From: an uncultured bacterium
GTDB taxonomy: Bacteria; Patescibacteriota; Saccharimonadia; UBA4664
Length of the DNA stretch: 64,000 bases
Assembly: GCA_963740635.1 (NCBI GenBank)
Contig: CAVUEQ010000001.1
Span: forward strand, 657,026 to 721,025
Direction: 5' to 3'
Under the pieces are notes generated by a model, which ran no database searches, was not told the origin of the DNA, and saw nothing but the letters and a program-made list of their open reading frames with translations. Every line of letters begins with the position of its first letter. Positions within the stretch are counted from its first letter, which is position 1. Positions 15,339 through 44,001 of the stretch are shown here, piece after piece. The position numbers and the translations under genes are program-made.

Positions 15339-15403
15339 TCTGTGGCATAATACGTGGTACTTCAGTTGTTTTGACATCCTACAACCCCACTACGGAGGCG
15401 GTT

Positions 15404-15925: not shown

Positions 15926-15940
15926 CTACCGGAGGTAGTA

Positions 15941-16495: not shown

Positions 16496-16503
16496 AGCAT
16501 GGG

Positions 16504-16536
16504 CTCGAGGGCGCAGGAGTTTTACGCGCCCTCGGG
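16504..16536. terminator. GC-rich hairpin between convergent genes
   Basis: CTCGAGGGCGC-N11-GCGCCCTCGGG. No clear U-tract. Confidence 0.4.
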
Positions 16537-16552
16537 TCCGGCACCGGTATTA

Positions 16553-16636
16553 TTATTTAGGCTTCTTGTCTTTCTTGGGGCCTTTGGGTTTCTTAACTTC
16601 TTTGCCCTTTCCGCCCTTGTCTCTGCCTTTGGCCAT
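16553..16636 (-). CDS. 27-aa lysine-rich small protein (candidate)
   Basis: My translation is MAKGRDKGGKGKEVKKPKGPKKDKKPK*. GAGGG lies 6 nt upstream of the ATG. Too short for the ORF track. Confidence 0.35.
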   Translation of the reverse strand: MAKGRDKGGKGKEVKKPKGPKKDKKPK

Positions 16637-16699
16637 GATGCCCTCGCTTTCATATGCGACTAACATTAGCACACTTCCCCGCCGGGCATGGGCGATGGC

Positions 16700-17035
16700 T
16701 CAGCCCCGGGCGCGGTCCTCGAACCATTCCCGAGGCCGGTTGTACTGCCAGGGGTCGCGAACGTTGCATTTAATGACTTCATACGTTTCCCAAACTTTGC
16801 CCGTTACGTAAGGCTCCCGCTTCAGCCAATCGTGGAGCTCTTTTTCGGTAGCGAAATCCATAAGCAGCATCGAGCCGATCATCTGGTTGTTGCCGTCCCA
16901 GAGCGCCGCGCCGTACCACATGTTGCCGGACTGACGCAGCTGCTCGCCGAGATCGATGTGGTCGGGACGGGCCTTCTGGCGGCGGGCCGGTGCTTCAGGG
17001 TCGGTGCCGTCCCGGCCGATGATGACGAACTGCAC
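16700..17035 (-). CDS. YciI-like protein
   Basis: 111-aa ORF: MQFVIIGRDGTD...RPDHIDLGEQL...G... Confidence 0.7.
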   Translation of the reverse strand: MQFVIIGRDGTDPEAPARRQKARPDHIDLGEQLRQSGNMWYGAALWDGNNQMIGSMLLMDFATEKELHDWLKREPYVTGKVWETYEVIKCNVRDPWQYNRPREWFEDRARG

Positions 17036-20755: not shown

Positions 20756-21064
20756 ATGCCGACCGTGGATTTTACAAAGGAAGAACTACTTACGGATATG
20801 CGCGTGCTAGTCGATGAGCGACTGGATGAGAAGTTGGAGGCGCGATTCAAGAAGGAGCGAGAGTACACGCGCAGCTTGCTTGATGAGCGATTCGCACAAG
20901 AGCGCGAGTATACGCGGCAGATGATGACTGATACCTTTTTGAGCTTTTGGGAGTCCAATCTGGAGCCGGCTTTCGAGTCGCTGGAGACCGAAGTCAAAAA
21001 GCAGGGACGGCTATTGGCACGTCACTCGAACGACATCATGGAGCTGCGGTCGCGCACAACGTAA
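20756..21064 (+). CDS. Hypothetical coiled-coil protein
   Basis: 102-aa product (internal Met of ORF 20663..21064) containing the internal repeat KKEREYTRSLLDERF / AQEREYTRQMM. Confidence 0.5.
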   Translation: MPTVDFTKEELLTDMRVLVDERLDEKLEARFKKEREYTRSLLDERFAQEREYTRQMMTDTFLSFWESNLEPAFESLETEVKKQGRLLARHSNDIMELRSRTT

Positions 21065-21402
21065 TGGCTACTGAGGCACGGACGGCGGAATTTTTGGCGG
21101 AGCAGGTGGCGGGCGCGGGTGAGATACGCACGCGCAAGATGTTTGGTGAATACGCTTTGTATTGCGACGAGAAGGTGGTGGCGTTTATTTGCGACGACCA
21201 ACTATACGTGAAGATTACCGCCGCGAGCCGGCCGTATCTCGACGAGTCGCACGATGCGCCGGCTTATCCCGGGTCGAAGCCATATATCCGGGTGCCGGAA
21301 GATTATTGGGACGATGCCGACTGGATGTCGCGGATCGTGCGGGCGGTGGCCGATAGTGTGCCGGCCCCTAAACCAAAGGCGCGGCGCACGCGGAAAGATT
21401 AG
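21064..21402 (+). CDS. TfoX N-terminal domain protein
   Basis: MATEARTAEFLAEQV...RKMFGEYALYCDEKVVAFICDDQLYVK. TAATG coupling to the upstream gene. Confidence 0.65.
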   Translation: MATEARTAEFLAEQVAGAGEIRTRKMFGEYALYCDEKVVAFICDDQLYVKITAASRPYLDESHDAPAYPGSKPYIRVPEDYWDDADWMSRIVRAVADSVPAPKPKARRTRKD

Positions 21403-26536: not shown

Positions 26537-26737
26537 CGGGGCCGCTATTTGCCAAACCCTTCGTCGTGAATGATGTATTTGTCCATATTGTCGGGCGTCA
26601 TGCCGTGATAGTTAAGGTTGTTCATGGTTATTTATACTATAACAGTTTCGCGGTACGTCGCTTAAAAGCTATACTCTTGGCTCATAACTGATTTACATGG
26701 CATAATGATTATGCTTATTTGTGATGGAGCGCGGTTG

Positions 26738-27640
26738 ATGTCGAAAACAAAACCGAAGCACCGGCCCGGCAGCCTGGCCAGGGTGATAGTCCTGGGGATT
26801 GCCGCGTTGTCACTGCTGTATATGGTGCTGATGCATGGTCACAATGTGCAGGTGCTTAACCCGAAGGGCTTCGTTGCACAAGAAGAGCTAGGGATGATTA
26901 TTTTTTCCACAATCGTGCTGCTGGCGGTGGCGGTGCCAACTGTCGGGGTGCTCTACTTCACCGCCTGGAAGTACCGTGAGTCCAACACCAAGGCCAAGCA
27001 CGACCCGCAGATGCAGGGCGGTAAGCTGTTCCTGCTAGCGACGTGGGGGATTCCCATCGTTTTTATGAGCGTGCTGAGCGTAGTGATGTGGACTGCGACT
27101 CACAAATACGTGCCTCAACAAACTATTCCCGCATCGGTCAAACCGCTGAGGGTGGAAGTGGTGGCGATGAGGTGGAAATGGCTATTTATCTATCCCGAGC
27201 AGCACATAGCGACCGTAAACTTTGTCCAAATGCCGGTTAATACCCCGGTAACCTTTGAACTGACCGCCGACGATGCACCCATGAGTGGGTTTTGGATCCC
27301 GAACCTGGGCGGCATGCTGTACGCCATGACCGGCCACCTGAACCCCCTCAACCTGATGGCACAGACGCCGGGTGATTATGAAGGCAGATCAGGCGAAATC
27401 AACGGCGCCGGCTTTGCTGACATGAAATTCACGGCCAGGGCTAGCTCCAAGGCAGAATTCGATGACTGGGTGGTCGATATGCGGCAGTCGGGGGGTGTAC
27501 TCGATGACGCTGAGTACCAAAAATTGCTCAAGCCCAGCGAAGCTAATCCCGCCACGTTCTACTCGGATTACGAAAAGGGGTTATATGCTACAGTGCTTAC
27601 GAAATACTCGGGCTCACATAACCACGGCGGACAAGAATGA
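26738..27640 (+). CDS. cyoA: Quinol oxidase subunit II (no CuA ligands seen)
   Basis: ORF 26705..27640. Preferred start is ATG 26738, with GGAG upstream. Two N-terminal TM helices and a cupredoxin domain with GRSGEINGAGFADMKF in place of the CuA Cys/His motif. Confidence 0.85.
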   Translation: MSKTKPKHRPGSLARVIVLGIAALSLLYMVLMHGHNVQVLNPKGFVAQEELGMIIFSTIVLLAVAVPTVGVLYFTAWKYRESNTKAKHDPQMQGGKLFLLATWGIPIVFMSVLSVVMWTATHKYVPQQTIPASVKPLRVEVVAMRWKWLFIYPEQHIATVNFVQMPVNTPVTFELTADDAPMSGFWIPNLGGMLYAMTGHLNPLNLMAQTPGDYEGRSGEINGAGFADMKFTARASSKAEFDDWVVDMRQSGGVLDDAEYQKLLKPSEANPATFYSDYEKGLYATVLTKYSGSHNHGGQE

Positions 27641-29754
27641 ACTGGCAGGAAGTAATCCTCGGTAAGTTAACTACCCAGGCGTTGCCGCACGAATGGTTTA
27701 CTATTGGCGGGACGATCGGCTTTATACTGCTACCATTCCTGGGCGTGATCGCACTTGGCTGGATCAAGGGCTGGAAGTGGTTGTGGGGAGAGTGGTTCAC
27801 CTCGGTTGACCCGAAGCGAATCGGCATCATGTACATGATTGTGGCCGGGTTTATGCTGTTGCGCGGCGGCCTGGACGCACTTATGCTCTGGCTGCAGCAG
27901 GCGCTGGGAGCCAGTAACATGCCCGGTTTTCTGGGCGTCCAGCACGGCTACCTCTCGGCCAGCCACTTCCAACAGATCTTCACAGCCCATGGCAACATCA
28001 TGGTGTTTTTCGTGGCGATGGCCTTCATCTTCGGGCTCATCAACTTCATCGTGCCATTGCAGATTGGCGCGCGTGACTTAGCGTTTCCGTTTTTGAATAC
28101 GCTCGGGTTTTGGCTCTACGTGGCCGGCGTAGTCATGGTAAACATGTTCTTCGCGCTGGGCGGCGAATACGCCGCGACCGGCTGGCTGGCGATAGCACCG
28201 CTACAGGGCAAGGAGTTTAGCCCCGGTGTGGGGGTGGACTATTGGATCTGGAGCCTTCAGATTTCCGGCATTGGCACCACCTTGAGTGCGCTGAACTTCA
28301 TTGTGACCATTATCAAGATGCGCGCACCCGGCATGACCATCTGGAAGATGCCGCTGTTTACCTGGGGCTCGCTGTGCAGCATGCTGATGGCGATCACGGT
28401 CTTCCCGCTGCTGACCGCTACGCTCTTCCTGTCCTTTTTCGATCGCTACATCGGCACGCACTTCTTCACCATCACGGCCGGGGGCGATCCTATGCTGTAC
28501 ACAAGCATGATCTGGATGTGGGGGCATCCCGAGGTCTATATTCTGGTGCTGCCGGCCTTTGGAGTGTTTTCTGAGGTGGTGTCGACCTTCAGCCGCAAGC
28601 CGGTCGCCAGCTACGCGACTGCGGTATTGGGTATGGTCGGCGTCTCGTCACTGGGACTTTCGGTGTGGCTGCACCACTTCTTCACGATGGGGGCCGGCGC
28701 CGACGTCAACGCGTGGTTCGGGCTGATGAGCATGATAATTGCGATCCCGACGGCGGTGCTAATGTATACCTGGATCGCCACGTTGTACAAGGGCCGGATT
28801 CGGTTTGCTACCCCGATGCTGTGGTTTTTGGGGTTTGTCTTCACTTTCACGATCGGCGGCTTGAGCGGCGTAATGCTGGGTATACCGACGGCGGATTTCC
28901 AGCTGCACAACAGCCTGTACCTGGTGGCCCATTTCCACGCCAACGTGGTCGGTGGGGTGCTCTTCGGTATCTTTTGCGGCATTACCTTCTGGTTCCCCAA
29001 GTTTGCGGGCTTTAGGCTCAATGAGCGGATCGGGAAGAACGCCTTCTGGTTCTGGATTGTGGGGTTCTGTTTGTCATTTATACCGATGATGATTCTGGGG
29101 CTAATGGGGGCTACCCGCCGCCTTGACCACTACGACGCCTCTACCGGCTGGCAGCCGTTGTACATCACTATGCTCATCGGCGGCCTCCTCATAGCGAGCG
29201 GCGTGGGCTTGCAGCTGGCTCAGATTTTGGCCAGCATTATTGAGCGCAAACGCCTGGCAGATACGACCGGAGATCCATGGAATGGACGGTCGCTGGAGTG
29301 GTCCACCGCCTCACCGCCTCCGGCCTATAACATCAGCAAAATTCCGACCGTGACCACTCGTGATGCGTTTTGGGAAATGAAGCAAAAAGGCCAGGGCGAG
29401 CCGGCCTACGAGGATATCCACGTCGTTAAGAATACCGCTGCCGGCATCTACATCTCCATCTTCGCTTTCCTCGCGGGCTTTGGCTTCGTCTGGAACATAG
29501 TGTGGCTGTGGGTGGCGTCGCTAATAGCGATAATCGTGAGCATTGTGGTGCGGTCATTCACCGAGGACACCGAGTATACAGTGACGGCGGCCGAGGTGAA
29601 GGCGCTCGAGGAAGAGCGCCTGAAGCACGTGCCTGATGCCCCGCCCGCAAGTGTCAGTGATCCCGATGAAGACATGGGAGTATGGGACCTGGTGAAGTGG
29701 TTGATGGCGTTTGCTTTGGATATTGTGAGGAGGAAACGATGGCGGAAGCAGTAG
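27637..29754 (+). CDS. cyoB: Heme-copper quinol oxidase subunit I
   Basis: 705-aa ORF: GMIWMWGHPEVYILVLPAFG, LWFLGFVFTFTIGGLSGV and HFH motifs. ATGA overlap with subunit II. Confidence 0.93.
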   Translation: MNWQEVILGKLTTQALPHEWFTIGGTIGFILLPFLGVIALGWIKGWKWLWGEWFTSVDPKRIGIMYMIVAGFMLLRGGLDALMLWLQQALGASNMPGFLGVQHGYLSASHFQQIFTAHGNIMVFFVAMAFIFGLINFIVPLQIGARDLAFPFLNTLGFWLYVAGVVMVNMFFALGGEYAATGWLAIAPLQGKEFSPGVGVDYWIWSLQISGIGTTLSALNFIVTIIKMRAPGMTIWKMPLFTWGSLCSMLMAITVFPLLTATLFLSFFDRYIGTHFFTITAGGDPMLYTSMIWMWGHPEVYILVLPAFGVFSEVVSTFSRKPVASYATAVLGMVGVSSLGLSVWLHHFFTMGAGADVNAWFGLMSMIIAIPTAVLMYTWIATLYKGRIRFATPMLWFLGFVFTFTIGGLSGVMLGIPTADFQLHNSLYLVAHFHANVVGGVLFGIFCGITFWFPKFAGFRLNERIGKNAFWFWIVGFCLSFIPMMILGLMGATRRLDHYDASTGWQPLYITMLIGGLLIASGVGLQLAQILASIIERKRLADTTGDPWNGRSLEWSTASPPPAYNISKIPTVTTRDAFWEMKQKGQGEPAYEDIHVVKNTAAGIYISIFAFLAGFGFVWNIVWLWVASLIAIIVSIVVRSFTEDTEYTVTAAEVKALEEERLKHVPDAPPASVSDPDEDMGVWDLVKWLMAFALDIVRRKRWRKQ

Positions 29755-30335
29755 CCGAGCCCAGCCAGCACGAAGAAGCAGCCAACGACCGGACGGTGTT
29801 TGGATTCTGGGTCTACCTTATGACCGACTTGTTGATGTTCTCCATTCTGTTTGCGGCCTATTCGGTGCTGCACGGCAACACGCTCGGCGGGGAATCGGGG
29901 CGAGAGCTCTTTAGCCAACCGGTGGCGCTCACCAAAACACTGCTGCTGCTCACCAGTAGCTTCACTGCCGGCATCGGCATGTACCGGGCGAGGCAGGGCA
30001 ACAAGAAACAAGTCCTAATCTGGTTTGGCATCACCTTCCTGCTTGGCCTGTCCTTTTTGGGGCTGGAAATCAAGGAGTTCGTCCAGTTTTTCCACGAAGG
30101 CCACACTATTCAGACTAACGGCTTCCTGTCGTCCTTTTTCGTGCTGGTGGGCACGCACGGGCTGCACATTACCTCAGGACTGCTGTGGATGGGGATCACG
30201 CTGGGGGTGGTATCGGCGCGCGGATTGCGCCCTAGCGTGGTGCGGAAACTGAGCTTGCTGAGCCTGTTCTGGCATTTCCTAGATATTGTCTGGATCTTCA
30301 TTTTCACTATCGTTTACCTGCAGGCCCGGGTGTGA
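29739..30335 (+). CDS. cyoC: Quinol oxidase subunit III
   Basis: GAGGAGG-N5-ATG at 29739. FGFWVYLMTDLLMFSILFAAY...FWHFLDIVWIFIFTIVY. Confidence 0.88.
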   Translation: MAEAVAEPSQHEEAANDRTVFGFWVYLMTDLLMFSILFAAYSVLHGNTLGGESGRELFSQPVALTKTLLLLTSSFTAGIGMYRARQGNKKQVLIWFGITFLLGLSFLGLEIKEFVQFFHEGHTIQTNGFLSSFFVLVGTHGLHITSGLLWMGITLGVVSARGLRPSVVRKLSLLSLFWHFLDIVWIFIFTIVYLQARV

Positions 30336-30991
30336 AAAGAGAGCACGGCACCGTCAAGAATTATGTGATCGGGTTTGGCCTGTCGCTTCTGTTTACGCTC
30401 ATTCCCTACTTCCTGGTGGCGAACCAGGTCGTGACGGGCGAGGCGCTTTATCTCACGATCATTACGTTTGCGCTGCTGCAGGCTATTATCCAAGTGTTCT
30501 TCTTCCTGCACCTGGGGCGGGAACGCAATCCGCGCTGGCAGTCTGGATTTCTGGCGGCTACGGTCGGCGGTATAATTGTGGTGACGGTGGGCACCACAAT
30601 TATCCTGTACCACCTGCACACCAACATGACGCCGTCGGCAGAGGCACTGAAGGCGGCTGAAGACGAGGGCATTGCCCAGGTCGGCGGGCAGGATACCGGC
30701 GCTTGCGTCGGGCCGTACGTCCTCCACAAAGTTACGATCACGAACGGCGTTGCCAGCCCCAGCCACACCAACGCGCGAAAGTGTGACCGGATCGAATTCA
30801 AGGATGCGGACAGCGGGGTGCGTGATATTGCTTTCGGATCTTATCCGCACCATGAGGTGTATGGGGGAGTGGAAGACCTGATAATCTCCAGGGATCAGAA
30901 CCAGACATTGATTCTGGACGAGTTGGGCACGTATTCGTTCCACGACCACCTGCACGAGCAGACAACCGGCAGCTTTACCGTAAAACCCTGA
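30332..30991 (+). CDS. cyoD: Quinol oxidase subunit IV fused to a ~110-aa C-terminal cupredoxin-like domain
   Basis: GTGA overlap with cyoC. The first ~105 aa are CyoD-like, with three TM helices (YVIGFGLSLLFTLIPYFLV...). The C-terminal half HKVTITNGVASPSH..CDRIEFKDAD..HHEVYGG..GTYSFHDHLHEQTTGSFTV is beta-rich and His-rich. Confidence 0.75.
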   Translation: MKREHGTVKNYVIGFGLSLLFTLIPYFLVANQVVTGEALYLTIITFALLQAIIQVFFFLHLGRERNPRWQSGFLAATVGGIIVVTVGTTIILYHLHTNMTPSAEALKAAEDEGIAQVGGQDTGACVGPYVLHKVTITNGVASPSHTNARKCDRIEFKDADSGVRDIAFGSYPHHEVYGGVEDLIISRDQNQTLILDELGTYSFHDHLHEQTTGSFTVKP

Positions 30992-31278: not shown

Positions 31279-31608
31279 TCAGAACCGGTAGGCCGTCACC
31301 TTTTCTTCGGTCACCAGAGCGCCGTTCACCATGCCGGTGGTTTCGAGCTCGTCCTTGAGCCGGTCGATTTTGGCGGCTGTATCCACGATTTCCACTACTA
31401 ATGACAGGTCGGTGCTGAGCTCCAGGATGCCGGCGGTATGCATTTTGTGGTGGCGCCCAAAGCCTTCTATCCCCCGCAACACCGTGGCGCCGGCATATTC
31501 GTGGGTGCGCAGGTATTCCAGCAGGTACTGGTAGGCCGGCCGGCCTTTAAACTTGTAGCTTTCTTCCAGGAAGATGCGCAATAGCACTTGCTGCTCGGTC
31601 TGTTTCAC
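31279..31608 (-). CDS. DUF190 (CrcB-associated) protein
   Basis: GTG start at 31608 overlapping the crcB stop (GTGA). LLRIFLEESYKFKGRPAYQYLLEYLR..GATVLRGIEGFG. Confidence 0.75.
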   Translation of the reverse strand: MKQTEQQVLLRIFLEESYKFKGRPAYQYLLEYLRTHEYAGATVLRGIEGFGRHHKMHTAGILELSTDLSLVVEIVDTAAKIDRLKDELETTGMVNGALVTEEKVTAYRF

Positions 31609-31994
31609 TTTATTAATCCTCCAATTAGTAAGGCCGCCTCTTTGCCTAAGTATATGGCAAGCAGGCACAAAAACAGGTTGGCGCTCAGATTTAGCCCGAA
31701 CAACGCGTAGTCGCGCAGGTCCACAAAGCGGAACGACTCGTAGGCAAACGTCGACATTGTGGTGAAGGCGCCGATGAAGCCCACGGCCATGAAGCTACGG
31801 AATTCGGGGGAGATGAGCCGGTCGTCGTGCAAAATGCTGTACATAATGACGCCCAAAAAGAAGCTGCCGATAATGTTCACCAGCAGCGTGCCGAGCGGAA
31901 AGCTGCCCCAGAACCCCGAGGTATATTTGGAAACCAGGAACCGGCTGACGGCTCCCAGAAACCCTCCGGCGCCTATAAGCAAAAGTTGCTGCAT
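31605..31994 (-). CDS. crcB: Fluoride channel CrcB/FluC
   Basis: 129-aa ORF: GGFLGAVSRFLV, GTLLVNIIGSFFLG, GFIGAFTTMSTF. Confidence 0.88.
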   Translation of the reverse strand: MQQLLLIGAGGFLGAVSRFLVSKYTSGFWGSFPLGTLLVNIIGSFFLGVIMYSILHDDRLISPEFRSFMAVGFIGAFTTMSTFAYESFRFVDLRDYALFGLNLSANLFLCLLAIYLGKEAALLIGGLIK

Positions 31995-32045: not shown

Positions 32046-32077
32046 AATTCCTTGGCTGGGGCGCAGGATTCGAACTG
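32046..32077 (-). repeat. tRNA-Gln 3'-end-like repeat R1
   Basis: AATTCCTTGGCTGGGGCGCAGGATTCGAACTG on the + strand. Compare the tRNA copy AATTCCTTGGCTGGGGCGCTAGGATTCGAACC. Confidence 0.8.
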
Positions 32078-32101
32078 AAAGTTAGACAGGTCGTTGATCA
32101 C

Positions 32102-32118
32102 TACACTAAGGTAGTGTA
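32102..32118 (+). promoter_or_regulatory. Candidate antitoxin operator (7-3-7 perfect inverted repeat)
   Basis: TACACTA-AGG-TAGTGTA, 14 nt upstream of the RHH antitoxin ATG. Confidence 0.4.
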
Positions 32119-32131
32119 CACTGTAGTCATT

Positions 32132-32353
32132 ATGAAGAATATTACACTTTCAGCACCCGAAGAGCTGATTGAGCTGGCACGGAAAAAGGCTGCGGCAAAA
32201 GGCACGACACTGAACAATGAATTTCGAGATTGGCTGGAGGCACAGGCGATAAGCGGCGAAGAGCATGTGGCGCAGTATAAGCAGCTGCTGGGACAGTTGT
32301 CCCACGTGGACGCTGGCCGTAAGTTCACTCGAGACGAAATGAACGAGCGCTAG
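32132..32353 (+). CDS. Ribbon-helix-helix-type antitoxin (VapB-like)
   Basis: 73-aa product MKNITLSAPEELIELARKKAAAKGTTLNNEFRDWL. Ends 4 nt upstream of a PIN toxin gene. Confidence 0.6.
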   Translation: MKNITLSAPEELIELARKKAAAKGTTLNNEFRDWLEAQAISGEEHVAQYKQLLGQLSHVDAGRKFTRDEMNER

Positions 32354-32357
32354 GCCA

Positions 32358-32786
32358 ATGCCCCTAAAAGATAAAGTATTTTTTGATACCAATGTTTTGG
32401 TATACCAATTTGACCGATCTACTCCGTCCAAACAGAGTCGAGCCGAAGAACTCATAGAGCACTGCATCCTCGAGAAACGCGCTGCTATAAGTTCACAAGT
32501 GGTGCAAGAGTTCATGAACGTGGCTTTATCGAAGTTCGCAGTGAAACTATCAGCGCAGGAGCTGGAACAGGTTATGTTTATGCTGCTCAAACCGCTATGT
32601 TCTCATACCCCCACCTTTGAGTTTTATCAGCGAACGCTCAAACTATATGCGTCACACTCACTTAGCTTTTACGATGCACTAATTATCCAAGCAGCGATGG
32701 ATCTGGGTTGCAGGACGCTTTATAGCGAAGATTTACAGGATGGCCAGCGGTTCGGAACTATAACGGTCAAAAACCCATTTATCTAA
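32358..32786 (+). CDS. vapC: PIN-domain toxin (VapC family)
   Basis: 142-aa ORF: FFDTNVLVY...SSQVVQEF...FYDALIIQAA...LYSEDLQDG. Confidence 0.75.
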   Translation: MPLKDKVFFDTNVLVYQFDRSTPSKQSRAEELIEHCILEKRAAISSQVVQEFMNVALSKFAVKLSAQELEQVMFMLLKPLCSHTPTFEFYQRTLKLYASHSLSFYDALIIQAAMDLGCRTLYSEDLQDGQRFGTITVKNPFI

Positions 32787-32799
32787 AAAGCAACATACG

Positions 32800-32827
32800 C
32801 TTGGCTGGGGCTCAGGATTCGAACTTT
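32800..32827 (-). repeat. tRNA-Gln 3'-end-like repeat R2
   Basis: CTTGGCTGGGGCTCAGGATTCGAACTTT. Confidence 0.75.
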
Positions 32828-32836
32828 GCAATCAGA

Positions 32837-33232
32837 CTACTTCGTGGCATCCAGGGACTTGAAGCCCGAAATTGTTATTGCGAGTATTTTGGGGTCACTT
32901 GTTACTAGCGTACATTTTTCGTTTCGGGCAACCGAGATTAGCATATTGTCAAAAGGGTCTTTATTGTCGGGGTTAAAAATGGCGTACCCGTGTAAGGCGT
33001 CTTCATCAGGCATAATTATTTCGATGCCCATTTTCGGCAGATCACCAATTACCGAGTGATCATAGTCCAGCTTGCCAATGCTGGCTTTTATTGTCATCTC
33101 GAAAAAAGAAAAATAGCTGATGCTAACCCGGTTACTTGTATCACTGAGCCGTTGCAGAGCACTGGAGCCGATGTTATTGTTCTCGTTCAAAAGCCAAATG
33201 AAAACCTGAGTGTCTACTAAGAGGTGCGCCAC
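32837..33232 (-). CDS. vapC: PIN-domain toxin (VapC family)
   Basis: 131-aa ORF: LLVDTQVFIWLL...ISYFSFFEM...DPFDNMLISVA...LVTSDPKI. Confidence 0.75.
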   Translation of the reverse strand: MAHLLVDTQVFIWLLNENNNIGSSALQRLSDTSNRVSISYFSFFEMTIKASIGKLDYDHSVIGDLPKMGIEIIMPDEDALHGYAIFNPDNKDPFDNMLISVARNEKCTLVTSDPKILAITISGFKSLDATK

Positions 33233-33235
33233 TCT

Positions 33236-33487
33236 TTATTCATCCAACATCAGCGCGGCAATACTCTTGTCTGTCGACTCGGCAAATGCATCTGGTTTTG
33301 CCGTTATTTTACCCTTGGCTATGCTGAATACGCGTTTTGAGAGTGAGCCAGACTCCTGATCGGAGACTTTTACCATTAGTACTTCTGGCTTGCCAAATCC
33401 ACCAATATAGATCTTTTCGCCCTGCTTTGCTTGGGCAATATATTTGCTGAGGTTGGTTTTGGCATCGTGGATTGATATCATCTTCAT
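33236..33487 (-). CDS. Phd/YefM-family antitoxin
   Basis: 83-aa ORF: MISIHDAKTNLSKYIAQAKQGEKIYIGGFGKPEVLMV. Confidence 0.7.
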   Translation of the reverse strand: MKMISIHDAKTNLSKYIAQAKQGEKIYIGGFGKPEVLMVKVSDQESGSLSKRVFSIAKGKITAKPDAFAESTDKSIAALMLDE

Positions 33488-33558
33488 GTTTCTATCTTAG
33501 CTAGCCTAGCTAACCCTGTCAAGCGATAGTGCTAGTCCTTGCCGGATGAGTAGTTGAT

Positions 33559-33594
33559 GGCTTTGTAAAGCCAAAAAATTCCTGGCTGAGGCGG
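33559..33594 (-). repeat. tRNA-Gln 3'-end-like repeat R3, including the downstream hairpin
   Basis: GGCTTTGTAAAGCCAAAAAATTCCTGGCTGAGGCGG. Compare GGCTTTACAAAGCCAATAATTCCTTGGCTGGGGCGC next to the tRNA. Confidence 0.65.
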
Positions 33595-33600
33595 AAGTAC

Positions 33601-34494
33601 TTATTCCAAACTTTTCAGTCTCTCCAAAACACCCTCGGCGAAAATGCGGGATACCATTTCGTCATAGCCACTGTCGAGTCCGCTGCTGCCGACCACTATC
33701 CTGCCCTCATCAGGGTCATCTGCGCTGCCCGCGTGCACCGCTCCTTGTCGGAGTGCACTACTGTTAGGTGATTCGGTTAGGAGTGTATACATGGCTTTCA
33801 GCGCCGCAATCTTATCAAACGGCAGGGACCATGGTATTTCCGCGCCTTCCGGATCTTTCAGAGTAATGAAGGTATCGTTAGCCAACAAACTGGCACTCAA
33901 AGCCTGTTGTAGCTCGGGACTAAAATCTGCGTCTTGTTTGTCTGTCATTATTGTCTTACGCAGAGTTTTCACTTTTTCCAGAAGGGCATCCCGCTGAGCC
34001 TTATCGAGCTTTAGGGCTTTCGGATCGAGTGCAACCACCGCCATTACCGGCTTCTGCTCCGGCTTGATCACTAGGTCTTTCGGGCGCAAACCCTTGAAAC
34101 GCCCATCTTCATTTACGCTGTTGGCATCATCAACCCCTGGCGGCGCCGGCTCCAGGTAGTCGGCTTTCGTGGCTTTATTACCATTTGAAGTTGTGTCATC
34201 GAAGCCCTCAATTGTTTCTTTGGTTGCGAGCTCACCCAAGGCGGAATTCTGCCACAATTCACTAACCTTTGTTGTCAGGTGATTGTCTTTTAGCTCGCGA
34301 AGAGCGTAGGCCAGCCGTCCTTCGCCGAAGAAGTGGGCGGCAACGGCTTTGGTGGCCCGGCCTAATTCAGAGGAAGCGGCGCCGGCATCGATCGACGAGA
34401 GAAACGAGCCATTCCGGCGAGGGCCACGCTCGGGTGATTCAAGGTTGGGGAACGAAAATGTAGCTTCCCTCTCGGGGCCGGGTTGTTCTTGCAT
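33601..34494 (-). CDS. Hypothetical protein
   Basis: 297-aa ORF. No motif I recognise. Confidence 0.5.
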   Translation of the reverse strand: MQEQPGPEREATFSFPNLESPERGPRRNGSFLSSIDAGAASSELGRATKAVAAHFFGEGRLAYALRELKDNHLTTKVSELWQNSALGELATKETIEGFDDTTSNGNKATKADYLEPAPPGVDDANSVNEDGRFKGLRPKDLVIKPEQKPVMAVVALDPKALKLDKAQRDALLEKVKTLRKTIMTDKQDADFSPELQQALSASLLANDTFITLKDPEGAEIPWSLPFDKIAALKAMYTLLTESPNSSALRQGAVHAGSADDPDEGRIVVGSSGLDSGYDEMVSRIFAEGVLERLKSLE

Positions 34495-34538
34495 GTGTAA
34501 ATCATAGCATCTGAGCCTGGCTCAGATGCAGCGCAGGG

Positions 34539-35336
34539 CTATTTTGTCGAAACCGCAATGGTCAGCGTCATAGCATAGTGCTTTTCGAGCGTACCGCCTG
34601 GCAATTTATTAATGATGTTTGCGATGCGGTGGAAAAATTTGTCGCGGTCGGTTTTCGAAAGAGCGATCATCATGGAGTAGGTTGAAAGCACGTCGAGATA
34701 TTGTTGGGCAGTGTATTTTATCACCATCGGAAAAGCACTATAGCTCACGAATGTAAACAGGTTCGGATCGAACTTTTCAGTTGAGCGCAGGCTGGCTAGT
34801 TTAGGCGGTTCTGATTGGGTGTATAGATTTGCTTGTTGCTCAAATGGGATGTACCTGTCAAAAAATGGCTTGCTGGAATGGTAGAATTGATCGCCGTTCC
34901 CGTCACATGTATGTACAGTGTGAATCACCGCCAAATGACCCCCGTTTACCAGTAGGTCGTGGGTTTTTGTGTATTTATACTCGTCGAGGACCCAATGAAA
35001 AGCAGTAGCTGAAAGGATAAGAGCGAACTCGTCCTTGGGCAGCTCGGTCCGCTCGAACGCGCCGGTGACGATCTGGACATTAGAGTAGCCCGCAAGAACC
35101 TCCCGAGCCTTCTCGGCCATCTGTGGTCCGAGCTCAACGGCTGTAATATTGTACCCTCGATCCGCCAAAGGCTTTGTTGCTTGGCCGGTTCCCGGGCCTA
35201 TCTCCAAAATGCTCGCGCCGGGCGCCAGTTTGGTGTCCTTAATCAGGCGCTCAAATAGCTGCACCGGGTAGTGCGGCCGTGATGCATGGTAATGGTCGGG
35301 CACTTGGTCGAATGTTGATCGCAGAGGAATGGTCAT
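34539..35336 (-). CDS. Class I SAM-dependent methyltransferase
   Basis: 265-aa ORF: ILEIGPGTGQATKPLADRGYNITAVELGPQMAEKA. Confidence 0.8.
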   Translation of the reverse strand: MTIPLRSTFDQVPDHYHASRPHYPVQLFERLIKDTKLAPGASILEIGPGTGQATKPLADRGYNITAVELGPQMAEKAREVLAGYSNVQIVTGAFERTELPKDEFALILSATAFHWVLDEYKYTKTHDLLVNGGHLAVIHTVHTCDGNGDQFYHSSKPFFDRYIPFEQQANLYTQSEPPKLASLRSTEKFDPNLFTFVSYSAFPMVIKYTAQQYLDVLSTYSMMIALSKTDRDKFFHRIANIINKLPGGTLEKHYAMTLTIAVSTK

Positions 35337-35343
35337 GTGATAG

Positions 35344-35364
35344 ATAATAGTTCCTTGGCTGGGA
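35344..35364 (-). repeat. tRNA-Gln 3'-end-like repeat R4 (short)
   Basis: ATAATAGTTCCTTGGCTGGGA. Confidence 0.55.
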
Positions 35365-35471
35365 CTATGGTCCGATTACCGGACTTTACAAACGCCGGTA
35401 AATCCTTTAACGGTGAAGCGGGTTGAAGCCCTGTTTGCGGAGTGGCATGAGCCAGTAGCTAGCACGAGTGA

Positions 35472-35816
35472 TTAGAGAGCTTTAGGCCTAGTCGAAATGC
35501 GGGTTAGCGCTCGTCCGAGCAATGCTAGGATTATCCCGCACACAGCCCCGAACACCCCTAAAATAACAAAGAAAGGTACTCTGCTAATCAAGCTCTGGCT
35601 GCCGCTATACCCCATAATCATAAAGACAAACGAAACCAGGAAGCCGAATATAGCCCCTCCCATAGCAGCCTCACTCAATCTTTTTGCCAGAAAACCAATA
35701 CCAAGCCCAATAATGGCCCATGCTGCCAAACTAAATACCGATTCATGCAATAGCAGCTTTGATACAGCCATGCCAATCACTGCTCCGCTAAGGCTAATAA
35801 TTACAATTCTCTGCAT
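35472..35816 (-). CDS. Small 4-TM membrane protein
   Basis: 114-aa hydrophobic ORF. Confidence 0.5.
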   Translation of the reverse strand: MQRIVIISLSGAVIGMAVSKLLLHESVFSLAAWAIIGLGIGFLAKRLSEAAMGGAIFGFLVSFVFMIMGYSGSQSLISRVPFFVILGVFGAVCGIILALLGRALTRISTRPKAL

Positions 35817-35847
35817 AGGTACATACTACCACGATAAGCATAAGCCC

Positions 35848-35875
35848 AATGGCTGGGGCGGCAGGTTTCGAACTG
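35848..35875 (-). repeat. tRNA-Gln 3'-end-like repeat R5
   Basis: AATGGCTGGGGCGGCAGGTTTCGAACTG, abutting the doc stop codon. Confidence 0.7.
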
Positions 35876-36262
35876 TTACGATTGCTTGCTACTATGCTGC
35901 TGTATCCACTTTGCTACATCGGCTAGGTCCGGGTGACTGTTAGCCATGCTGAGCGTATATTGTTCGAGCTCCTCGTTCGTCGCTGAGAGGTCATAACCAT
36001 TAACTGTGAGAAAACGATACATCGAGATGGCAGAGGTTCGTTTGTTGCCATCAATGAAGACGTGATAGTTGCAAAGTGCCTCGTACAAGGCGGCCGCTTT
36101 GGCGAAGACAGTGGGATACAGTTCTTGCCCACCGAAGCCGGCTTGTGGCTTGGCCGCGATTGACTCTAGAAGTTCAGGCTCCCGGATCCCAAGAGAGCCG
36201 CCGGTAGCTTCCACAATTTGATTATGGATAGCTGTGATTTCGGCGGCTTCGAGGTAGTGCAT
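35876..36262 (-). CDS. doc: Fic/Doc-family toxin (Doc)
   Basis: 128-aa ORF with the Fic motif HVFIDGNKRT. Confidence 0.85.
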   Translation of the reverse strand: MHYLEAAEITAIHNQIVEATGGSLGIREPELLESIAAKPQAGFGGQELYPTVFAKAAALYEALCNYHVFIDGNKRTSAISMYRFLTVNGYDLSATNEELEQYTLSMANSHPDLADVAKWIQQHSSKQS

Positions 36263-36483
36263 TATATGTCGGCAAGCGCTTCCAAGGCTGGGCGGTAGCG
36301 ATCGATGGCTTTGCTTGTCCAGGCTGTGAGTTCTTCATCTACTGGCAGGCTTTCCGTGACTGGCACGAGACGGAAGATTGGTTTTGACCGTTTGACGACC
36401 ACGAAGGTTTCGCCACGATTTGCCCGCTCTGCTACAGCCTCTGTGTTTTCTCTGAGCTCCTTGAGCCCGATTATGGTGGCCAT
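36262..36483 (-). CDS. phd: Phd/YefM-type antitoxin
   Basis: 73-aa ORF: IIGLKELRENTEAVAERANRGETFVVVKRSKPIFRLVPV. 1-nt overlap with doc. Confidence 0.7.
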   Translation of the reverse strand: MATIIGLKELRENTEAVAERANRGETFVVVKRSKPIFRLVPVTESLPVDEELTAWTSKAIDRYRPALEALADI

Positions 36484-36542
36484 ATAGTTGATCCTTTAAG
36501 GTTACTTATAGATTAACTTAAAAGCTACTTTGTGTCAACATG

Positions 36543-36560
36543 ATAATTCCTTGGCTGGGC
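36543..36560 (-). repeat. tRNA-Gln 3'-end-like repeat R6
   Basis: ATAATTCCTTGGCTGGGC. 17 of 18 nt are identical to the copy at 36629-36646. Confidence 0.7.
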
Positions 36561-36637
36561 CTAGTCAGCGACATCAGAATCGCTCTTGAACAGGCCGGGG
36601 AGCTGCGAGATGTGGCTTTACAAAGCCAATAATTCCT

Positions 36638-36712
36638 TGGCTGGGGCGCTAGGATTCGAACCTAGGATCTCTTGAGCCAGAATCAAGCGCCTTACCACTT
36701 GGCCACGCCCCA
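36638..36712 (-). tRNA. tRNA-Gln (anticodon CUG), CCA encoded
   Basis: 75-nt reverse-strand sequence TGGGGCGTGGCCAAGTGGTAAGGCGCTTGATTCTGGCTCAAGAGATCCTAGGTTCGAATCCTAGCGCCCCAGCCA. 7-bp acceptor stem, anticodon stem CTTGA/TCAAG with loop TTCTGGC, and T-arm CCTAG-GTTCGAATC-CTAG(G). Confidence 0.9.
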
Positions 36713-36756: not shown

Positions 36757-37227
36757 TTATGTCTTCGGTAAAGATTGCCGGCGGGGGCGGAGGCGTTTGA
36801 GCTGGGGCCAAGCCCGGCGCAGGATGCCGGCGCCGTACACCAGGAAAACCAGGAAGGCCGAAATCCAGGCGATGGCGTCTTCGGAGGCGTCGATGTTGTA
36901 GCGGGCGGTGAGGTGGACCCACATGCCGAATTCGTCGAAGGATAGGGCCAGGCCGACGCCGTAAAAGTAGGCCTGCAAGCGGCGGCCCTTGTTTACGGTG
37001 ATGGCGATGAAGCCGACGATGGCGAGCACGAAAAAGCCGTAAATGAAATGGTGGACGTGAGTGCCGCGCACGTGGAGGAACAAATACGGATAGCGCGCCA
37101 CGAGGAACCGGGCCATCCAGAAGGTCGGCAGGAAGCCCACGAGCACCCAGAACGGGATTTGCTTGCGCCGGTTGAGGATGAGCTCATTAAGTGCGAAGCG
37201 GAAGGGCTTCAGGAATTTGCGTGCCAT
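36757..37227 (-). CDS. Hypothetical membrane protein
   Basis: 156-aa ORF with about 4 TM helices, immediately downstream of sodX. Confidence 0.5.
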   Translation of the reverse strand: MARKFLKPFRFALNELILNRRKQIPFWVLVGFLPTFWMARFLVARYPYLFLHVRGTHVHHFIYGFFVLAIVGFIAITVNKGRRLQAYFYGVGLALSFDEFGMWVHLTARYNIDASEDAIAWISAFLVFLVYGAGILRRAWPQLKRLRPRRQSLPKT

Positions 37228-37229
37228 GG

Positions 37230-37616
37230 TTACAGTTTAGCAATTATTACGGCCTCGATGTCGGCGAGCGGGACGGGGCCGAACTGGCGCGAATCGCTGG
37301 AGCGGGCGGCGTTGTCGCCGAGCAGCGTGGCTTGGCCGGCGGTGACGGCGGCCAGGCGCTTGATGAGCGGCCGGCCGGCGTGCGTGGCCACCACCGCCTG
37401 GCCGGGCCGGGGCCGGCGGAACCAGCGCAGGCCCAGCAGGAGGTCGCCCGGCCGGTAGCTGGGCAGCATGCTGTCGCCGGCTACCCGGTAGAGGCCGAGG
37501 GGCCAGAGGCGCGCGGGCGCCACGGAGCGGATTATTCCGAGTGCAGCCAGCGGTGTCTGCGGTCGCCTTTGCGACCGAGTTCGCTGGCCAGCGAGGAATG
37601 ATTCGCGCAGGGGCAC
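37230..37616 (-). CDS. sodX: Ni-SOD maturation protease (S26 signal-peptidase-like)
   Basis: 128-aa ORF: RVAGDSMLPSY.PGDLLL...IKRL...LLGDN...S.DSR.FG. Adjacent to sodN. Confidence 0.75.
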   Translation of the reverse strand: MPLRESFLAGQRTRSQRRPQTPLAALGIIRSVAPARLWPLGLYRVAGDSMLPSYRPGDLLLGLRWFRRPRPGQAVVATHAGRPLIKRLAAVTAGQATLLGDNAARSSDSRQFGPVPLADIEAVIIAKL

Positions 37617-37617
37617 A

Positions 37618-38019
37618 CTATTTGGCCGCCTGTTTGGTGGCGTCGAAGACCGTAGTGATTTCGGCGATGAGCGCCAGCAGCTTTTCGCCTTCGGCGGGCT
37701 CGTGATGGTGCTTGGTCTCCCCCGCCTGTTTGGTGGCGCGCCATATGAGGTCGTGCAGGTCCGGGTGTGCGGCGAGATGCTCGGGCTTGAAGTAGTCGGT
37801 CCACAGCACCCACAGGTGATGCTTCACCATTTCGGCGCGGGATTCCTTGATGATGAGCGAGCGGACGCGGAAATCGGGGTCGGGATTGTCCGCCATTTTT
37901 TTCATGATGGCGAGCACCAATTCGGCCTCAATACGGGCCTGGGCCGGGTCATAGACGCCGCAGGGCAGGTCGCAGTGAGCATAGACAGTTTTGGCGGGCA
38001 GCAAGTGCAGTAAACTCAT
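37618..38019 (-). CDS. sodN: Nickel superoxide dismutase precursor
   Basis: GGAGG-N6-ATG at 38019 gives a 14-aa propeptide MSLLHLLPAKTVYA followed by the Ni-hook HCDLPCGVYDP. Confidence 0.9.
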   Translation of the reverse strand: MSLLHLLPAKTVYAHCDLPCGVYDPAQARIEAELVLAIMKKMADNPDPDFRVRSLIIKESRAEMVKHHLWVLWTDYFKPEHLAAHPDLHDLIWRATKQAGETKHHHEPAEGEKLLALIAEITTVFDATKQAAK

Positions 38020-38134
38020 AATTTCCTCCATATTCTGCTGCTAATTATACGCCGAGAATAGATGCGTAGCGGTGCTCAAAAATGCCAACATAAGCGGCTT
38101 GAATGGTGATGATGCTTACGTTTATACTAAAACT

Positions 38135-42543: not shown

Positions 42544-44001
42544 TCACAGTGTATCAATCTCATCTAGCTGCTCTTTACTATAGCCGCCATAAATTAAGTT
42601 AATGCGAGTTCCAGGCGTCAACCGTGTGAGGGGTAGCTCAATCCCGTTGCGATCCTTAATTTTCCCTTTATAGGGATTTTGGAAGATCTGGGTGACCTCT
42701 TGACCCGCTTGTGTCTTCGCATGAATCGCGCCTTGAGTTCCGGCTGTATCAACTGAAAGGAGTGTGAGATTTGTCGTTGTACCCGGGCAGTAGTAGCTCG
42801 CCGCTCCAGCGTCGATAAGTTTGCAAAATCGGGGGTCTTGAGCCGACTCCTGGATAACGATTTTATATACGTAAACTTTATTCGTCCGGTTATCCTGCCT
42901 CCAGTAGTACGTAATTACACTGCCGGGCTTTGCGTAGAAAGAGTCAGATGATTTCCCGTCTGGTGTAAAGTACTTGGCTTGGCTCTGGTCTATTCTGGAA
43001 GCCTGCGTGTCGGTGGGGCCATCCAACGACATCGCAGCTATCTCGAAAGCTGGATCGCGACTAATTACCAGCATGTCCTTATCGACCCGGATATCTTGAT
43101 TGTAGACCTGCGCACTCGGCACCTGATATGTGAAGCATTGCTTCCCAGCCGCGTGATGAAGGAAATCTCTAGGCTTTGTACCGCCAGAGGCGTCATAGTG
43201 AAACCACCCACATAGTTGATAGTTTGTACCGATATAGAAGAATTCGACGTTGTCCTCTCGAGCGATAGCCTCGGGATCAATATGTTGCGCAGGGAGGTTT
43301 TTAAATGCATCCGCGATTTTGTCTGCTGTTTCCTGTAAATGGGGACCCATCACCCTATCCTGGTAGTGCCTCCAGGCGAGGGGGAAAGTAAAGTAAATGA
43401 AGAGAACGGAACACACGAAAAGTGCGGTAATAATTGCTAGCTCGCGCTTTCCGATATTAATGGGCGTTCCAATGGATCTACCGCCCAGACGAATTGCGGC
43501 ATAAATTGCTAGCCCTAGCTGTGAACAAATGATGAGATTTCTGGTCTGGATCAGTATATTGATAAGAATTTCGGGGCGTTGAAATGCGTATGAGTTGCTG
43601 AAGAGATGAGATAGGGTAGCCGCCAATTGACCAACGAGTACAAGTACCGCAATTTGTGCAACTTGTTTGTTGCGGAAAACACCCAAAAGTAACGCTACCA
43701 ATAGTACTAAGAACGGAATGATAAATAAGATTAACCCACCTAGCCAATTCGTTGGTGAACAGGTATCCACGAAACCTATAGCACAGGCATTGATAGGATA
43801 AATAGCCTGATGGAAACTGTATAGCAGTCTGGATGGTGGGAGGAGATAGGCTAGGGTGCCACAGAAAATCAATGCCGATATTGCTAGGGATAATTTGTTG
43901 TTTGTCGGCGAGTTTGGCTTTGTCGGGATGGGGAGTTTTGTAGATTTGGAATAATTTTCCGGGTTTATCTCGGATGTGATTGTTGGTGGCGTCGTGTCCA
44001 T
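42544..44001 (-). CDS. Hypothetical polytopic membrane protein with a large extracytoplasmic C-terminal domain
   Basis: 485-aa ORF in a low-GC patch. No family recognised. Confidence 0.5.
   Translation of the reverse strand: MDTTPPTITSEINPENYSKSTKLPIPTKPNSPTNNKLSLAISALIFCGTLAYLLPPSRLLYSFHQAIYPINACAIGFVDTCSPTNWLGGLILFIIPFLVLLVALLLGVFRNKQVAQIAVLVLVGQLAATLSHLFSNSYAFQRPEILINILIQTRNLIICSQLGLAIYAAIRLGGRSIGTPINIGKRELAIITALFVCSVLFIYFTFPLAWRHYQDRVMGPHLQETADKIADAFKNLPAQHIDPEAIAREDNVEFFYIGTNYQLCGWFHYDASGGTKPRDFLHHAAGKQCFTYQVPSAQVYNQDIRVDKDMLVISRDPAFEIAAMSLDGPTDTQASRIDQSQAKYFTPDGKSSDSFYAKPGSVITYYWRQDNRTNKVYVYKIVIQESAQDPRFCKLIDAGAASYYCPGTTTNLTLLSVDTAGTQGAIHAKTQAGQEVTQIFQNPYKGKIKDRNGIELPLTRLTPGTRINLIYGGYSKEQLDEIDTL

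Follow-up and report, generated by a model that had tools for sequence, protein, structure and literature searches.

The 64-kb stretch of DNA analyzed here (contig CAVUEQ010000001.1, in the following the window), which belongs to a Candidatus Saccharimonadia bacterium, contains a 4.6-kb island of small gene modules directly downstream of an intact tRNA-Gln(CUG) gene. The 3' end of this tRNA gene is a lineage-wide integration hotspot, at which short sites resembling attachment (att) sites bound small foreign units, and in one related lineage near-identical strains differ by the gain, loss or replacement of such units, with breakpoints exactly at the site cores. We consider it probable, though well short of certain, that the island is a tandem accretion array of att-bounded mini-elements that lack a recombinase and are moved in trans at a tRNA-Gln hotspot of Saccharimonadia. 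Mobilization of the units in trans is itself probable, and we infer both the recombinase responsible and the mobility of the units at the present day.

Copies of the tRNA-Gln 3' end in the window

The tRNA-Gln(CUG), the sole tRNA gene of the window (68.7 bits with the Rfam tRNA model), is a live attachment site. Six partial copies of its 3' end (R1-R6, Table 1) are located downstream of it in the same orientation, each repeating the last 10-25 nt of the tRNA and often extending into the first ~7 nt of its flank, with CAGCCA being invariant across all copies in the window. The 16-mer CCCCAGCCAAGGAATT, which spans the tRNA end and the flank, was matched five times when up to three mismatches were allowed, compared to 0.68 matches expected; four of the five were inside the island, and none of 100 shuffles reached five matches. 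A longer pattern reaching from the T-loop to CCA was matched twice (0 expected). In a search with an nhmmer site profile made solely from partial copies of other genomes, the tRNA and R1-R6 were the top seven matches in the window, all on the minus strand (E = 9e-5 to 0.05), and the eighth match had an E value of 0.18. The intact tRNA and the six copies in its orientation had been reported in a first-pass annotation of this DNA; ARAGORN and Rfam, the pattern counts and the independent profile agree with it on the coordinates, and the counts and the profile attest to the significance of the repeats.

The hairpin GGCTTT(GT/AC)AAAGCC is present 3' of both the tRNA and R4. Its retention at these two places, the second being the copy at 33559, had been noted in the first-pass annotation and is confirmed by the sequence and by repeat families. 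The corresponding 16-nt near-palindromes, TGGCTTTGTAAAGCCA at 36613-36628 and TGGCTTTACAAAGCCA at 33558-33573, have their two central bases inverted relative to each other. The window hairpin GGCTTTGTAAAGCC reappears as GGCTTTGCAAAGCC in a contig of a relative (L031) after the partial copy at 2811, and a terminator-like hairpin was found 3' of several site flanks.

Gene content of the units

Measured from CCA to CCA, the six units (C1-C6) have lengths of 86, 702, 494, 1773, 781 and 749 bp. Pfam supported the Doc plus Phd, PIN plus Phd, and methyltransferase plus hypothetical protein modules that had been predicted from open reading frames (ORFs) alone. For the predicted pair of a ribbon-helix-helix (RHH) antitoxin and a PIN toxin, the toxin was recovered by Pfam; the RHH label remained unverified, the 73-aa ORF having no family. 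The cassette proteins without a family had no match in NCBIfam, PHROGs or Pfam. The genes of C6 run opposite to the strand of the other cassettes. Coding regions approach the sites closely in C2, where the doc stop codon is 3 nt ahead of R2, and in C4, where the methyltransferase start codon is 19 nt past R3 and the 297-aa ORF stops 10 nt ahead of R4. C5 has a promoter-like site (TTGACA-17-TAAGAT at 33522-33494, 10/12 matches in the promoter scan). Overall, the promoter and terminator scans detected no excess over the shuffled expectation (8 vs 4.8 and 5 vs 5.5, respectively), and only the C5 site was strong. The GC content of the units is 0.45-0.53, that of the flanks 0.57-0.63 and that of the whole window 59%; all six are below genome GC, and each differs from the others. 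Since the closest homologues of the C4 methyltransferase are only ~52% identical, the homologue search is silent on mobility.

Table 1. Sites, units and bordering genes of the tRNA-Gln island in the window, and partial tRNA-Gln copies in related lineages (C, unit; L, contig; position numbers refer to the window or to the contig named)
Feature	Position or length	Strand	CCA-equivalent end	Content	Evidence
tRNA-Gln(CUG)	36638..36712	-		anchor; 3' end ...GGTTCGAATCCTAGCGCCCCAGCCA	ARAGORN, Rfam
Post-tRNA flank	36613..36637	-		type A flank AGGAATTATT and hairpin GGCTTTGTAAAGCC; with R1 makes the gene-less unit C1	sequence, repeat families
R1	36544..36579	-	36552	GGCCCAGCCA, then AGGAATTAT; longer box spacing, or tRNA-length copy from TCAAGAG	nhmmer E = 3e-4
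R2	35836..35874	-	35850	CAGTTCGAAACCTGCCGCCCCAGCCA; tRNA-like geometry, type B flank TTGGGCTTATGCTT	nhmmer E = 1e-4
R3	35346..35385	-	35356	TCCCAGCCA, then AGGAACTATT; longer box spacing	nhmmer E = 9e-5
R4	33558..33613	-	33583	AAAGTTTGGA-N13-CCTCAGCCA, then GGAATTTTTT and hairpin GGCTTTACAAAGCC	nhmmer E = 1e-3
R5	32800..32826	-	32802	AAGTTCGAATCCTGAGCCCCAGCCA; tRNA-like geometry	nhmmer E = 0.05
R6	32046..32075	-	32053	CAGTTCGAATCCTGCGCCCCAGCCA, then AGGAATT; most distal copy, abuts core gene crcB	nhmmer E = 3e-3
C1	86 bp			gene-less	
C2	35850..36551	-		Phd-type antitoxin 36262-36483, Fic/Doc toxin 35876-36262	Pfam
C3	35356..35849	-		single 114-aa hydrophobic protein 35472-35816, no family match	
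C4	33583..35355	-		class I SAM methyltransferase 34539-35336, 297-aa hypothetical protein 33601-34494 without family	Pfam
C5	32802..33582	-		Phd antitoxin 33236-33487, PIN toxin 32837-33232	Pfam
C6	32053..32801	+		73-aa putative antitoxin 32132-32353 without family match, PIN toxin 32358-32786	Pfam
CrcB fluoride channel	31605..31994	-		first core gene past the island	Pfam CRCB in identical Logan contig
156-aa conserved membrane protein	36757..37227	-		just upstream of the tRNA; marker for fetching the loci of relatives	
L020			11555, 12369, 13633	hydrolase; 237-aa ORF; DUF1428	
L021-L023			13770, 14538	aldo-keto reductase, FAD oxidoreductase, 208-aa ORF; 212-aa ORF	
L031			2387, 2811		
L109/L110			11226, 11270, 11934	RelB/YafQ first, then acetyltransferase	
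L122			1819, 1974		
L125			1689, 1744		

Strain polymorphism at the tRNA-Gln site

Contigs of one related lineage (L121-L123 and L125), all of which carry the identical flank protein P0017, represent three allele forms. L123 is empty: its tRNA is joined directly to TTGCACTTATGCTTTTAATC... (TTGCACTTATGC...), beyond which lie a 111-aa ORF and a DUF2087-GNAT gene. L121 and L122 contain an extra 1,222 bp with one 272-aa gene, bounded by the tRNA with TAGCACTTATGC on one side and by the partial copy AAGTTCGAAATACGTCAACTAGGGGCAGCCA with TTGGACTTATGC on the other, and another, degenerate site at 1819 sets off a unit of 155 nt without a gene. L125 carries a different insert of 882 bp with one 197-aa membrane protein gene, which is bounded by the tRNA with AGAAATTATCG and by ..CTCCCCAGCCA with AGGAGTAAATCG; beyond it lie a gene-less unit of 55 nt and, once more, the type B copy (flank types are described below). 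The left flanks of these alleles are 99.1-99.7% identical, and the right flanks are 98.7% identical between L122 and L123 and ~91% identical in the comparison with L125. The breakpoints of the inserts coincide with the tRNA-end cores. Presence, absence and replacement of cassettes, which the first-pass annotation had proposed as a check, are thus evident from the empty, 1,222-bp and 882-bp alleles, in a relative lineage and not in the strain of the window.

Variable regions downstream of tRNA-Gln in related lineages

For the 156-aa membrane protein whose gene precedes the tRNA, 226 homologues were retrieved, some of them named Candidatus Saccharimonadia or Patescibacteria; the exact protein is encoded on a contig of 828,923 bp, and the loci of relatives were fetched for homologues at 61-77% identity. 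The left side of the locus, consisting of the genes for Ni-superoxide dismutase, an S26-type peptidase and the membrane protein as well as tRNA-Gln(CUG), is kept in the relatives, whereas the content to the right of the tRNA is different in every lineage. A protein comparison of the 10 kb downstream revealed almost nothing in common other than a GNAT-family gene shared by two arrays (56% amino acid identity) and gnd, a core gene that marks the end of the island in two lineages. In five other lineages, partial tRNA-Gln ends in the orientation of the tRNA split the variable region into units of one or two genes (Table 1). A recombinase gene is absent from all of these arrays.

Wider searches yielded little more. 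A metagenome scan with a profile of the flank protein returned 80 loci, of which only four close ones had kept the tRNA. Scanning a genome collection for the tRNA end followed by AAGGAA produced only Pelagibacteraceae and a few unrelated metagenome-assembled genomes, in which the flank match is coincidental, and no relatives. In a viral collection the tRNA-end pattern had 0 matches, and the one match to the type B site (L131) was a chance palindrome. Contigs L001, L025, L032, L124 and L128, assembled from several samples, break off at the tRNA-Gln 3' end or no more than some tens of bases away from it. Such ends are expected if populations differ downstream, and a tRNA sequence common to several species could also explain them. 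A Logan contig break inside the tRNA end of the window's strain fits a variant junction and equally fits a tRNA sequence common to other organisms.

Anatomy of the sites

Closer inspection of the sites across genomes revealed two recurring flank motifs. Type A, (A)GGAATT(A/T)T, follows the tRNA, R1, R3, R4 and R6 in the window, the copies at 12369 in L020 and 14538 in L021, and the tRNA of L125; it resembles GGTATTATG, located 3' of the tRNA beside one type of large serine recombinase (LSR) gene found in relatives (L116 type, see below). Type B, TTGCACTTATGCTT, follows R2 in the window, the tRNA and the copy at 13770 in L021, the tRNA of L026, and the copies at 11555 in L020, 2387 in L031, 11270 and 11934 in L109, and 1974 in L122; it resembles, more weakly, TTGGTTTAATATTT beside a second LSR type (L024 type).

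The spacing between a GTTCGAA-like box and the core CCCAGCCA is 9 nt in all live tRNAs. On the other hand, it is 14 nt in 13/14 scored partial copies of relatives and also in R3, R4 and arguably R1 of the window, while R2, R5 and R6 have 8-9 nt. The spacers of the 14-nt copies show no sequence relationship to one another, and all of the 11 copies aligned have 'GTT'. Since the 14-nt spacing was found in no tRNA, such arms are not simple decayed tRNA fragments, and their box spacing seems to be constrained. L109 and L122 share a 49-nt site at 94% identity, compared to 68% for the flank gene and 74% for gnd DNA. In serine integrases, attP has the distal zinc-ribbon motif 5 bp further away from the crossover than attB does (PMC3783163). 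By analogy, the 9-nt spacing on the tRNA agrees with a host-type arm and the 14-nt spacing at the far ends of units with element-type arms; R2, R5 and R6 could be true displaced tRNA ends that stem from crossover events in the T-loop. The tRNA-proximal site, AGCCAA-GGAATTA-TTGGCT, forms a 6-bp dyad with a 7-nt spacer, and the TTGGCT arm is missing from R1, R3, R5, R6 and the type B sites. For comparison, the dif-like site of Xer-dependent modules (IMEX/pdif) measures 28 bp, its XerC and XerD arms enclosing a 6-bp spacer. Seven 60-nt sites folded as DNA displayed no attC-like fold and no common hairpin (z = -1.8 to +0.7).

Large serine recombinases at tRNA-Gln in relatives

In several relatives an LSR gene is docked at the same tRNA end. 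L024 encodes a 498-aa LSR (Resolvase, Recombinase and Zn_ribbon_recom domains) that ends 83 nt from tRNA-Gln and reads toward the tRNA. A second LSR of 501-540 aa, 25% identical to the first, is present in L115-L120 and overlaps the last 15 nt of the tRNA; its C-terminal WLGR* (10587-10601 in L116, also in L115 and L117-L119) is read from the strand complementary to the 3' acceptor arm and the T-stem. In L106 just 37 C-terminal residues of an L024-type LSR are left beside the tRNA. The L024 family has 921 matches at E <= 1e-10, some named Candidatus Saccharibacteria, and the best 120 of the 921 are all 60-70% identical and ~495 aa long. Members of this family were also found in L126 and L127, 80-83 nt from a tRNA-Gln(UUG) with the same ..CCCCAGCCA end. 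Both have a relaxase gene beside the LSR, and L127 adds TrwB-like (coupling-protein), M23 peptidase and VirB4/TraG-like genes. The LSRs docked in relatives show that two or more serine recombinase families, including one from a conjugative element, use the tRNA-Gln 3' end for attachment, and place this end in the ordinary class of integrase targets.

Past the LSR element, L115/L116 encode a 300-aa tyrosine recombinase followed by a BamHI-like endonuclease and an N6/N4 methyltransferase (14215-16782), with the weak tRNA-end-like sequence CTCTCCCAAGCCA just upstream of the recombinase start at 15136; this region may be a second element in tandem. The P0078 locus, which shares a 305-kb contig with an LSR element, offered no test of an array together with a recombinase because it has no tRNA-Gln. 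In the viral collection the LSR as a single protein matched nothing, and an LSR profile retrieved only relatives at 28-34% identity.

Within the window, neither the island ORFs nor 40 ORFs scanned with Pfam across the 64 kb contained a serine or tyrosine recombinase family, and tblastn against the window with two LSRs and one tyrosine recombinase from relatives as queries returned nothing; several window ORFs remain without a family match. The earlier statement that no recombinase is present consequently holds for this window and fails for the system, given the LSRs at the same tRNA-Gln end in relatives. The sole transposase-like gene in the 64 kb is an ORF with an IS1595/ISXO2-like DDE transposase domain (49660-50454, plus strand), 13 kb from tRNA-Gln and unconnected with the repeats.

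Interpretation and alternative explanations

The picture is not that of a single classical island, as had been recognized in the first-pass annotation: there are six tRNA fragments, units from below 1 kb to 1.8 kb, and no integrase in the window. A classical tRNA-targeting element contains its integrase gene and leaves one displaced tRNA 3' fragment at its far end; L024 and L115, with an LSR at the tRNA, correspond to such an element over the part of it that was reached. Serial accretion, which it had put forward, fits the evidence. Each unit would be a mini-element bounded by mimics of the tRNA end (..CCCAGCCA) and a short flank, comparable to the cis-mobilizable elements (CIMEs) or pseudo-SCC elements (SCC, staphylococcal cassette chromosome) of other bacteria, and would be inserted beside the tRNA and excised in trans by a recombinase encoded elsewhere or on a visiting element. 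Recombination would take place within or next to the invariant CAGCCA (LSRs cross over at a central dinucleotide common to both partner sites), and each integration would restore the tRNA end, usually supply a terminator and move older units outward, while the toxin-antitoxin cargo would hinder deletion of the array. As in CIMEs, the units have att sites in direct orientation and are without integration or transfer genes; the full element at the same site that belongs to the definition of a CIME occurs in related genomes (L024, L115, L126 and L127), outside the window's genome.

Several observations weigh against this interpretation. No recombinase was detected in the window or the island by the Pfam and tblastn searches described above. 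A search over 10 kb did not reach the far ends of the LSR elements, which leaves attP uncompared with the cassette sites, and no consistent mirrored TTCGAAC box is present to the right of the sites. The +5 rule is weakest in the window itself, where R2, R5 and R6 are tRNA-like and R1 can also be read as tRNA-length. Polymorphism was observed in 1/4 multi-contig lineages, with no variation in the other three; neither a circular nor an empty-site junction turned up for the strain of the window, and no window cassette was found in any other array. In addition, canonical serine integrases do not, to our knowledge, recombine attP with attL, so that serial accretion needs a permissive enzyme, as Ccr is, or another recombinase.

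A different history would have six full-size integrative elements, each with an integrase, inserting one after the other and subsequently being deleted down to their att sites and addictive or useful genes, which would make the units inert scars that are immobile now. This is the textbook origin of CIMEs and tandem arrays (PMC5704250), the same reading has been given to the scattered partial tRNAs in Prochlorococcus islands (bioRxiv 10.1101/2020.12.28.424599), and the LSR of L106 that has shrunk to a 37-aa remnant beside the tRNA, the degenerate state of the window sites and the toxin-antitoxin genes, which are the expected survivors of deletion, are all in line with it. However, in most units the deletions would need endpoints no more than 10-20 nt away from the att core, gene-less units of 86 bp and of 55-155 bp still hold both sites, single-gene units differ exactly at the cores among 99%-identical strains, and the box spacing and the 49-nt site are conserved far above background, which is not expected of decaying scars. 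We therefore regard this history as rather unlikely, although it is the main rival. If there were no site-specific recombination of cassettes at all, the repeats would be local tRNA-end duplications or pseudogenes, and strains would differ because entire islands are exchanged by homologous recombination, natural transformation being one possible route. The TfoX-like gene in the window and the drop in identity of L125 from 99.6% left of the tRNA to 91% right of it, which suggests imported DNA, would agree with such an exchange. The copies, however, are nearer to the copies of other genomes than to the local tRNA (+5 geometry, A and B flanks, 94% identical 49-nt site), the right-hand breakpoints of the inserts sit on partial copies and not at arbitrary points, and each unit has a distinct low GC content, all of which renders this explanation improbable. 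The first-pass annotation had regarded an identical, syntenic locus with decayed tRNA pseudogenes as the outcome that would count against recombination scars; the locus proved to be neither identical nor syntenic, most copies of relatives share the non-tRNA geometry, and the 49-nt site stands out against a background of ~70%.

Least credible of all is an integron-like platform, in which a resident recombinase encoded beside the array takes up cassettes without promoters at a primary site, and a common promoter drives their expression. Integrons have the tyrosine recombinase IntI encoded next to the array, attI and the promoter Pc, attC sites that are imperfect palindromes folding in single-stranded form, and cassettes that are for the most part promoterless and in one orientation. 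The many 0.5-1.8-kb cassettes with a repeated site and the richness in toxin-antitoxin genes, as in chromosomal superintegrons, do recall such a platform, and the L024-type LSR family is strongly conserved (60-70%) across Saccharibacteria. Nevertheless, no recombinase adjoins the array in the window or in L020, L021, L109 and L122; where an LSR is present, it belongs to a conjugative element. The cassettes are in both orientations, C5 has a strong promoter-like site of its own, and the sites are without the attC fold. The 'integron-style' label of the first-pass annotation is thus valid as a functional analogy only.

Other features of the window

A protein with a TfoX N-terminal domain (20947-21402, plus strand), similar to a competence regulator, bears on a possible exchange of islands by transformation. 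The island is flanked by cytochrome bo-type quinol oxidase genes (26705-30991) and by genes for Ni-superoxide dismutase and its maturation peptidase (37230-38031); the oxidase and the dismutase are genes of an aerobic lifestyle in a Saccharimonadia genome of ~0.83 Mb. A second patch of low GC content (0.49-0.51; 8109-11357, minus strand) contains adjacent ORFs with PPDK_N (277 aa), PEP-utilizers (507 aa) and His_Phos_1 (301 aa) matches and may be horizontally acquired or a split locus of a phosphoenolpyruvate (PEP)-utilizing enzyme. Near the SMC gene, a 485-aa ORF (42544-44001, minus strand; GC ~0.47) without a match in Pfam, NCBIfam or PHROG occupies a stretch in which relatives have S16, KH and TrmD. 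It may represent another insertion.

Significance and comparison with known systems

Saccharibacteria and other members of the candidate phyla radiation (CPR) have genomes of ~1 Mb that are thought to be poor in mobile elements, and their strain-specific gene acquisition is poorly understood. Our literature searches retrieved no description of such an array for Saccharibacteria, and arrays of this kind are apparently undescribed in the phylum. The locus and its counterparts in at least five related lineages point to a defined, easily recognizable hotspot for adding and removing modules of one or two genes, including toxin-antitoxins, methyltransferases, acetyltransferases and small membrane proteins. 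The non-tRNA '+5' geometry may provide a way to separate element-derived from host-derived arms at serine-integrase sites that requires nothing but sequence. If a serine recombinase does act in trans, the short tRNA-mimic sites and the well-conserved recombinases of 495 aa would together amount to a natural system for cassette exchange that is compact, testable in vitro and might help to engineer organisms that are hard to manipulate. As a more far-reaching and tentative possibility, which we hold to be on the doubtful side, the hotspot could be a serine-recombinase-driven gene-capture platform functionally parallel to integrons. Cassettes of one or two genes, each with a ~45-50-bp attP-like mimic of the tRNA-Gln 3' end, would then be captured, stacked, shuffled and released by recombinases of conjugative elements, flanks A and B would correspond to two recombinase families, and the process would be a main route of accessory-gene turnover in these ultra-small genomes.

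From the integrons, CIME arrays, SCC-like cassettes and Prochlorococcus islands compared below, the array stands apart by the size of its units (86 bp-1.8 kb), their number, the non-tRNA geometry of most site arms, and its host. Chromosomal superintegrons are rich in toxin-antitoxin genes, and the array shares with integrons and superintegrons the one-sided arrangement of small cassettes, each with a site, and this toxin-antitoxin richness. In contrast to them, it is without IntI, attI, Pc and attC hairpins, its genes have mixed orientation, and its site mimics a tRNA end in double-stranded form. The pdif modules of Acinetobacter plasmids are likewise small, often encode toxin-antitoxins, are bounded by short Xer sites and have no recombinase of their own; their sites are XerC/XerD dif-like, alternate in orientation and reside on plasmids, whereas the repeats in the window are direct, tRNA-derived and chromosomal.

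The tycheposon islands of Prochlorococcus are anchored at tRNAs, with older elements pushed inward and partial tRNAs scattered among them (bioRxiv 10.1101/2020.12.28.424599; Cell 2023), and resemble the window in the combination of a streamlined host and tRNA anchoring. They differ from it in having their own, mostly tyrosine, recombinases, replication modules and integrase fragments, while the window contains no integrase fragment, single small modules and a non-tRNA site geometry.

CIMEs carry no integration genes, keep attL and attR, undergo site-specific accretion and would be mobilized by the integrase of a co-resident element (PMC5704250). Arrays of CIMEs with integrative and conjugative elements (ICEs; ICESt1/ICESt3 of Streptococcus thermophilus) and tandems of integrative and mobilizable elements (IMEs) with CIMEs at streptococcal tRNA-Lys are, like the array in the window, stacked at a conserved gene whose 3' end a full conjugative element targets as well. 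The six units of the window, on the other hand, are 86 bp-1.8 kb long with 1-2 genes each and not decayed ICEs of several kb, and unlike CIMEs they may never have been large. The candidate enzymes are LSRs and not tyrosine integrases, and the host is a member of the CPR (Saccharimonadia).

SCC-like cassettes without ccr at rlmH (orfX) are excised and circularized in trans by CcrAB/CcrC (PMC11470126). The target in the window is a tRNA gene, the units are 10-50x smaller and known from sequence alone, and the LSR families are, as far as tested, unrelated to Ccr. Like the array described here, SCC and SCCmec consist of tandem cassettes that are split by att repeats from the 3' end of a housekeeping gene and carry accessory or defense-type cargo, and the 3' end of their target gene is used by large serine recombinases in the same manner as that of tRNA-Gln by the LSRs of the relatives.

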